Source: Escherichia coli (GTDB lineage: Bacteria; Pseudomonadota; Gammaproteobacteria; Enterobacterales; Enterobacteriaceae). From it: 64,000 bases of DNA. The notes beneath the pieces were generated by a model. It saw nothing but the letters and a program-made list of their open reading frames with translations, did not search any database and was not told where the DNA came from. The DNA is taken from the NCBI RefSeq assembly GCF_003334355.1, contig NZ_QOWP01000002.1; one strand, given 5' to 3'. A program made the position numbers and the translations under genes. Every line of letters begins with the position of its first letter. The stretch's first letter is position 1. Shown in pieces: positions 24,279 through 24,371 of the stretch.

Positions 24279-24371
24279 AATGATTTTCCCTTCATGCCAG
24301 TAAACCCGGCGTCAGCGCCAGGTTTTGGTATGTTTGATGAGTACGGGCGACGGCTTTCTGCCCGTCAGAAA

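Follow-up and report, generated by a model that had tools for sequence, protein, structure and literature searches.

Comparative sequence analysis identifies a short hairpin, H1, located between psuG and psuT in the psuKGT operon of Escherichia coli, as a conserved cis-acting mRNA stem-loop that is under selection. A second copy lies in the leader of the paralogous transporter gene nupX, and the same hairpin occurs at about 50 loci from more than 15 genera of Enterobacterales, always on the sense strand. H1 is an undescribed but conventional object, a small conserved cis-acting mRNA hairpin. Phylogenetic evidence supports it as an RNA structure of a model organism that is missing from Rfam and unannotated at the E. 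coli matches listed, and it provides a mutable handle on how the level of a transporter differs from that of the soluble enzymes of the same operon.

The psuKGT and rihB-nupX genes are core E. coli genes that scavenge pseudouridine and pyrimidine nucleosides. Our full-text literature searches found almost nothing published on their regulation and no publication treating the psuG–psuT spacer; published work on these genes concerns enzymes, transport assays, and strain engineering. NupX shows weak uridine and cytidine transport, and a substrate for PsuT was not detected (PMC11241209).

Two copies of H1 in the E. coli locus

The window, the whole 64-kb stretch of E. coli DNA that we analyzed, carries psuK (25298-26239), psuG (24372-25310), psuT (23028-24278), rihB (21188-22129), and nupX (19838-21088), all on the minus strand; the gene order in MG1655 is nupX, rihB, yeiL, psuT, psuG, psuK, with the psuG–psuT junction at 2,257,336-2,257,428 and the rihB–nupX junction at 2,254,146-2,254,244. 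A 901-nt segment around H1 is 100% identical to several complete genomes, in which the genes are annotated as psuG and psuT. Positions 23900-24800 are unusually diverse within E. coli, the best match being 90 to 95% identical in 1,772 of 5,410 records and 80 to 90% identical in 243 of the 5,410, and six matches in the E. coli genomes collection are on plasmids. PsuT, a CNT-family transporter, and NupX share 89% protein identity; their coding sequences are 78.5% identical at the DNA level and 51% identical at third codon positions.

On the plus strand, positions 24343-24371 read acgggc-gacggctttct-gcccgt-cagaaa. In mRNA order, the psuG stop codon UAA (24374-24372) is followed by UUUCUG, the hairpin ACGGGC-AGAAAGCCGUC-GCCCGU (24365-24343, minus strand), 64 nt, and the psuT AUG (24278). 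The 5′ arm ACGGGC occupies 24365-24360, the 11-nt loop 24359-24349, and the 3′ arm GCCCGU 24348-24343, and the element is supported by its sequence, by RNAalifold, by covariation, and by a covariance model score of 40 bits. An earlier note on this DNA had the motif beginning a few nucleotides past the stop of psuG, at 65 nt from the psuT start, which agrees to within 1 nt with the 6 and 64 nt found here.

The same note had recognized the motif in both the psuT and nupX leaders, and this holds. The nupX copy (21113-21133, minus strand) is situated between the rihB stop and the nupX start, with 25 nt separating its end from the AUG; it has a UGGGC/GCCCA stem and the same loop and scores 36.1 bits with the covariance model. 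On the mRNA, both copies read UUUCUGA(C/U)GGGC-AGAAAGCCGUC-GCCC. The 27-nt block that the two leaders have in common, UUUCUGA[C/U]GGGCAGAAAGCCGUCGCCC (24345-24371, minus strand, in the psuT leader), includes an Escherichia-specific 5′ flank, UUUCUGA. The 19-mer core GGGCGACGGCTTTCTGCCC has exactly two matches in the window, both with 0 mismatches (24345-24363 and 21114-21132), against a chance expectation of 0.01, and two matches were reached in 0 of 100 shuffles.

Among E. coli genomes, the matches to a 191-nt query were located at psuT and nupX. A 31-mer occurred at a median of two places per genome and at three at the highest (5,425 complete E. coli genomes), with no annotated feature under its sites among the matches listed. 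Because the median is two and the listed matches fall in the two transporter leaders, a dispersed repeat family of the REP/BIME type is excluded. Scanning Rfam 15 at E ≤ 10 gave isrJ as the only overlapping match, whose score (20.1 bits; gathering score, 37) is noise.

Conservation and covariation across Enterobacterales

The earlier note had proposed looking for the 19-nt core elsewhere in the genome and in related species; in addition to the median of two copies in E. coli, this led to approximately 50 Enterobacterales loci, and the motif is thus present in the orthologous operons, whose lack of it the note had named as refuting. The comparative scan, which used an alignment of PsuT and NupX as query and one genome per species, returned 59 loci, 50 of them from Enterobacterales (Escherichia, Citrobacter, Klebsiella, Enterobacter, Kosakonia, Phytobacter, Buttiauxella, Kluyvera, Pseudocitrobacter, Superficieibacter, Salmonella arizonae, Entomohabitans, Pluralibacter, Pantoea, Izhakiella, Ewingella, and Hafnia). 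Nine distant homologues from other phyla (31-43% identity) do not have the motif, and a protein search for more distant transporter homologues returned close relatives only.

Essentially all of the Enterobacterales loci recovered carry the motif NN-GGGCAG-NNN-GC-N-GUCGCCC-NN on the coding strand of the spacer, and the spacer around it diverges freely. It occurs in two gene contexts, psuK-psuG-H1-psuT and yeiL(divergent)-rihB-H1-nupX, which are found in tandem in some genomes, including E. coli. Upstream there is always a co-oriented enzyme gene, psuG in the first context and rihB in the second; downstream lies the transporter gene, its start codon 25-68 nt from H1. The psuG context has H1 6-10 nt past the psuG stop, and the rihB context has it behind a further hairpin of nonconserved sequence. 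A covariance model built from 49 distinct sequences matches only these sites in 351 kb of loci plus the 64-kb window, with sense scores approximately twice the antisense scores. Its best other match, 16.3 bits at 28702-28733 inside an ORF (28371-29309), was judged to be chance, leaving no further copies of H1.

From an ungapped 35-column alignment, RNAalifold independently predicted a 5-bp stem and an 11-nt loop. The stem is GC-rich and 5-7 bp long, with a GGGC/GCCC core. Across the 49 sequences, the pair flanking this core is C-G in 32, U-A in 12, and U·G in one and is unpaired in four; the next pair out is A-U in 16, G-C in 11, and G·U in one and is unpaired in 21. Each of two core pairs has undergone a single compensatory change: in Enterobacter sichuanensis G-C became U-A, and in Hafnia G-C became A-U. 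The observed covariation score was reached in 0 of 500 column shuffles, and slid controls were clearly lower. On a neighbor-joining tree of the transporter gene, the first flanking pair shows at least nine state changes, with C-G and U-A clades nested within one another, so the covariation signal does not reflect a single inherited event. Folding energies of the 27-nt windows average -10.3 kcal/mol (mean z relative to shuffles, -1.8). These compensatory stem changes across Enterobacterales loci bear out the proposal of the earlier note that the motif is a structured element with a function rather than a product of chance.

Variation within E. coli identifies the strand on which the hairpin acts. 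The 5′ arm alleles ACGGGC, GCGGGC, and GUGGGC all stand opposite an unchanged GCCCGU, and the two-mismatch class accounts for 1,040 of 5,431 best matches. The arm alleles pair only by way of G·U wobbles, which on the other strand would be A·C mismatches. Since such pairing is possible only in RNA of the mRNA strand, the hairpin is selected as sense-strand RNA.

Overall, 15 of 19 core positions are 86-100% conserved across more than 15 genera. The 11 nt of the loop are asymmetric, AG NNN GC N GUC, with A5, G6, G10, C11, G13, U14, and C15 conserved at 86-100% and N7-9 and N12 varying freely. The inner bases could pair as an A·C mismatch plus a G·U, as a bulged A plus a G-C, or as a CAG/CNG mini-helix with a three-base bulge, three options that are indistinguishable because the columns hardly vary. 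In the 27-nt fold, the Hafnia variant is paired throughout as a 12-bp stem with a 3-nt loop.

The surrounding leader and the history of the two copies

The psuT and nupX leaders of E. coli match at 26 of the 27 nt of the common block, the single difference being C/U. A G/A change just beyond the 3′ side of the block matches this difference, and the pair is preserved. After the block comes a segment of approximately 40 nt present in the psuT leader only, followed in both leaders by CAUGAAG, the Shine–Dalgarno region, and the start codon. With 26 of 27 positions identical, against 51% identity at third codon positions, the block is far better kept than neutral sites. Given this alignment, the H1 copies belong to homologous leaders and are not independent inventions; on sequence grounds, they are the paralogous leaders of sister CNT transporters with a common ancestry.

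The two Escherichia copies agree even at positions where genera differ, namely the UUUCUGA flank, N7-9 (AAA), and N12 (C, found in no other genus recovered here). Because of this agreement at genus-variable positions, a short gene-conversion tract has probably homogenized them. In Escherichia, the flank of psuT is similar to (N)UCUGAU, the nupX-type flank found in other genera, and we infer that conversion ran from nupX into psuT in the Escherichia lineage. The earlier note had taken the near-identity of the two copies as support for a function. The function stands, on the strength of the cross-genus covariation, whereas the identity itself is accounted for by ancestry and probably conversion. 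Both E. coli copies go back to a single ancestral leader, the psuT copy being apparently homogenized with the nupX copy in Escherichia. H1 thus cleanly illustrates how a regulatory RNA is passed on by gene duplication and, as it appears, homogenized by a very short gene-conversion tract.

Downstream of H1, the comparative alignment delineates a C/A-rich, G-poor linker, ACUCAUCAAACAUACCA (24326-24342, minus strand), that is predicted to be single stranded. Most other genera have AUAUCAGACAUACCAAAA at this place, and the linker is kept in both gene contexts but is deleted from the E. coli nupX leader. Next comes a second hairpin of the psuT leader, AAACCUGGCG-CUGA-CGCCGGGUUU (24302-24325, minus strand), predicted by RNAalifold and single-sequence folds, which is nearly invariant in the psuG–psuT context and missing from most rihB–nupX leaders. 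Of these elements, the nupX leader of E. coli retains H1 but neither the linker nor the second hairpin, so H1 works on its own. For the second hairpin, we also observed that a better U-run would follow AAACCUGGCG/CGCCGGGUUU on the opposite strand. Its 3′ arm is repeated beside the Shine–Dalgarno sequence in Klebsiella-type leaders (CCAGGU), and its 5′ arm is repeated in E. coli-type leaders (CCUGGC); these repeats in psuT leaders are hints of alternative pairings.

The psuT translation-initiation region (24266-24293, minus strand) has the Shine–Dalgarno sequence GAAGGG at 24293-24288. A 7-bp hairpin, UCAUUAU-GGAC-AUAAUGA (24283-24266, minus strand), encloses the psuT AUG and is kept in almost all orthologues. 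Codon 3 differs in the E. coli nupX start region (near 21070-21110), where AUGACAU pairs with AUGUCAU around the Shine–Dalgarno sequence and AUG. At least two nupX leader alleles exist in E. coli, distinguished by an indel of approximately 12 nt between H1 and the Shine–Dalgarno sequence, GCCCAUAACGGGAUCAGACCUGACAUGAAG versus GCCCAAUAUGACAUGAAG (locus L001, 5638-5705, compared with window positions 21089-21140).

Upstream of the nupX copy, a long hairpin that follows the rihB stop, AGCCGGG...CCCGGCU (21142-21175, minus strand), lies directly 5′ of H1. Its sequence is not conserved, and other genera have a different hairpin in the same place, which in Pluralibacter is a canonical terminator with a U6 run. 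Over all loci, the 20 nt upstream of H1 have a weak excess of complementarity to its 5′ half (mean z -0.78 relative to shuffled flanks, the sequences not being independent), whereas the value for its 3′ half, a mean z of -0.05, shows no excess. Where psuG is the upstream gene, the flank complementarity is mainly that of GCCUG(A), the last codon and stop, with CGGGC.

Possible roles of the hairpin

The reading that we favor, although we hold it at slightly less than an even chance, is that H1 is an autonomous cis-acting mRNA stem-loop that uncouples the transporter from the enzyme cistrons, most simply as a processing or stability boundary. H1 would mark the 5′ edge of the untranslated leader in NupX/PsuT-type CNT cistrons and would act in cis, after transcription, as a self-contained module. 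As a protective hairpin at the junction of an enzyme cistron (psuG or rihB) and a membrane-transporter cistron, it could allow the two parts of the operon transcript to differ in lifetime and output, that is, discoordinate operon expression. The variable distance to the start codon of 25-68 nt and the lack of pairing with the ribosome-binding site are consistent with such a module. The hairpin may also be read by a trans-acting factor, which is suggested because the loop is conserved. The data show that H1 exists, on which strand it forms, that it is conserved and covaries, and in which gene context it lies, and that features of a terminator, a promoter, or an anti-Shine–Dalgarno sequence are absent; its part in stability or processing, like the factor, is what we infer.

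Intercistronic stem-loops that stabilize or process transcripts and give discoordinate expression include the malE–malF REP hairpin, the iscR–iscS structure, and the papB–papA and glmU–glmS junctions. H1 resembles these in being stable, in lying in the untranslated spacer that separates a cistron for a soluble protein from the next cistron, in lacking a terminator U-tract, and in having a position independent of the ribosome-binding site. It differs in that it is not dispersed, with its median of two per genome, and in that it has a conserved asymmetric loop that those structures do not need. The loop is also what the favored reading accommodates least well: a pure stability hairpin leaves unexplained why conservation reaches 86-100% at G10, C11, G13, U14, and C15 but not at the variable N7-9 and N12. 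Moreover, a separate hairpin already follows the rihB stop, so H1 is not needed there merely as a 3′ protector of the upstream cistron. Immediately 5′ of H1, Escherichia and Citrobacter have an A/U-rich, RNase E-like site that is not shared by all genera. Our search of the literature and supplements found no transcript-end, cleavage, or expression data for the psuG–psuT junction; one E. coli 3′-end and transcription start site mapping supplement had nothing at this junction, only an unrelated antisense start site in nupX.

Loop conservation speaks for the main rival reading, unlikely in our view, in which H1 is the recognition element of a regulatory switch. A protein, a small RNA, or a ligand such as pseudouridine would bind the loop and thereby regulate the transporter cistron at the level of translation, decay, or Rho-dependent termination, with YeiI as one candidate protein. 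The asymmetric loop AG NNN GC N GUC is strongly kept with neighboring positions free, the distance to the start codon varies as expected of an autonomous binding site, and a conserved C/A-rich, G-poor linker follows H1. YeiI has an HTH_24 domain (E = 2e-10) and a PfkB kinase domain and is encoded convergently, directly after the transporter, in approximately 30 loci. Against this, Rfam yields no family match even at E ≤ 10, nearly all known aptamers are larger than a 5-bp stem with an 11-nt loop, and neither a long-range loop partner nor a conserved pseudoknot was found. The Hafnia variant exchanges conserved loop bases for a fully paired stem, most loci with rihB-nupX alone have no nearby yeiI, and predicted pairing with GcvB is no better than for shuffled leaders. 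The more specific proposal that H1 and the C/A-rich linker form the sensor of an undescribed post-transcriptional control of nucleoside uptake in Enterobacterales, in which the loop is bound by YeiI (here as an RNA-binding protein), by some other protein or small RNA, or by a ligand derived from a nucleoside, and the transporter is switched independently of the enzymes, is doubtful. If a protein, small RNA, or metabolite does read the loop, H1 would represent a new class of regulatory RNA for nucleoside transport.

Small hairpins that serve as recognition RNAs include lambda boxB, which is bound by N, the RAT hairpin of BglG/SacY, and the preQ1-I riboswitch. Like these, H1 is modular, combines a short GC stem with a conserved loop, and is located in an mRNA leader. 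Unlike them, it has no similarity to Rfam families and no A-rich tail or other conserved pseudoknot was found, and, unlike the RAT hairpin, it does not overlap a terminator. With respect to a riboswitch, what was observed is a single covarying helix with a conserved loop ahead of nucleoside-transporter genes; the search for a multi-helix or pseudoknotted architecture gave none.

Three further explanations fit the data poorly. The earlier note had raised a processing site, an attenuator, and an internal promoter or operator as possibilities; the first is contained in the reading that we favor, and the second, taken as an intrinsic terminator, and the third are not borne out. A GC-rich stem directly after the psuG stop, within an operon, does resemble an intrinsic (Rho-independent) attenuator ahead of the transporter gene. 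However, the stem lacks a U-tract behind it in every species examined (approximately 50 sequences; downstream sequences are, for example, GUACUCAU, GCGAAUAU, and AUAACGAG), the terminator scan did not report H1, the loop of 11 nt is long for a terminator and has a conserved sequence, and the only short U-run of the psuT leader belongs to a separate hairpin 40 nt downstream; we regard this as the least probable of the readings. Very unlikely as well is a DNA element, in which H1 would be an operator of psuT and nupX, or belong to an internal promoter of these genes, and be recognized by a dimeric transcription factor (YeiI or YeiL, for example). GGGC-N11-GCCC is indeed an inverted repeat, the cluster encodes these two DNA-binding proteins, and within psuG, ahead of psuT, a genomic SELEX study reports a binding peak of the RpoS holoenzyme (PMC5493296). 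Yet the promoter scan found no -35/-10-like site at or near H1, E. coli nupX has only 25 nt between H1 and the AUG, and the conserved inner bases are not dyad-symmetric (GGGCAG versus GGGCGAC). The flanking stem positions change jointly, with G·U wobbles that are A·C mismatches on the other strand, and scores of the covariance model on the sense strand are about double those on the antisense strand. In addition, the psuK promoter has a different, strongly conserved dyad, AACAYRTGTT, twice, and no promoter in the loci, those of psuK and rihB/yeiL included, has an H1-like site. Should the SELEX peak mark a stationary-phase promoter within psuG, H1 would lie near the 5′ end of a psuT-specific transcript, which is compatible with either leading model.

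The third of these explanations, to which we give scarcely any weight, holds that H1 is functionless, a relic of duplication kept alike in E. coli by gene conversion. The agreement of the Escherichia copies even at genus-variable positions does point to conversion. Conversion within a genome cannot explain why 15 of 19 core positions are 86-100% conserved across more than 15 genera, however, and the repeated compensatory changes that keep the stem would be left unexplained while the spacer around H1 diverges freely.

Several other readings of the element were tried and rejected. A pseudoknot or alternative helix between the 5′ flank and the loop, UUUCUG/CAGAAA, is perfect in Escherichia and has a counterpart in Ewingella, AAACU/AGUUU, but over the 49 sequences 48% of cells pair, the same as in slid controls; for the alternative helix GACGG/CCGUC, covariation was no better than in controls. 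Duplex energies of the 5′ flank as an anti-Shine–Dalgarno sequence did not differ from those of shuffled flanks (mean z -0.03), and neither half of H1 paired preferentially with the translation-initiation region (mean z +0.18 and +0.25 relative to shuffled controls). No alternative pairing of H1 with the Shine–Dalgarno or start region was detected, and the search for a long-range partner of the variable loop positions gave no helix-like pattern. A leader peptide from the AUG of AUGGGC, which occurs in many nupX leaders, an N-terminal extension, and a psuG frameshift or readthrough all fail, because the spacings to the neighboring genes differ between loci and neither frame nor ORF is conserved. 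Pairing of GcvB with the C/A-rich linker was no better than with shuffled leaders. The promoter and terminator scans reported nothing at the element.

The fruA–psuK spacer contains two terminator-like hairpins (26478-26513 and approximately 26625-26650, minus strand) with GGGCAG/CUGCCC stems, one of them with a U-run; they start with GGGCAGA as H1 does, yet they score only 11 bits with the H1 model. YeiI (18694-19782, plus strand) combines an N-terminal winged helix (HTH_24, E = 2e-10) with a PfkB kinase domain and matches an NCBIfam pseudouridine-kinase family below the cutoff. Full-length yeiI orthologues lie convergent to and immediately behind the transporter gene in approximately 30 loci, and from its domains and position YeiI is a candidate nucleoside-responsive regulator of the cluster. 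The psuK promoter (26311-26338) carries two AACAYRTGTT dyads, AACATGTGTT and AACATGTGCT, approximately 70-100 nt upstream of the psuK start. The pair, whose sequence is unrelated to H1, also precedes psuK in other genera, among them Citrobacter, Klebsiella, Enterobacter, Kosakonia, and Buttiauxella, is a likely operator of the psu operon, and looks like a more natural target for YeiI than H1.
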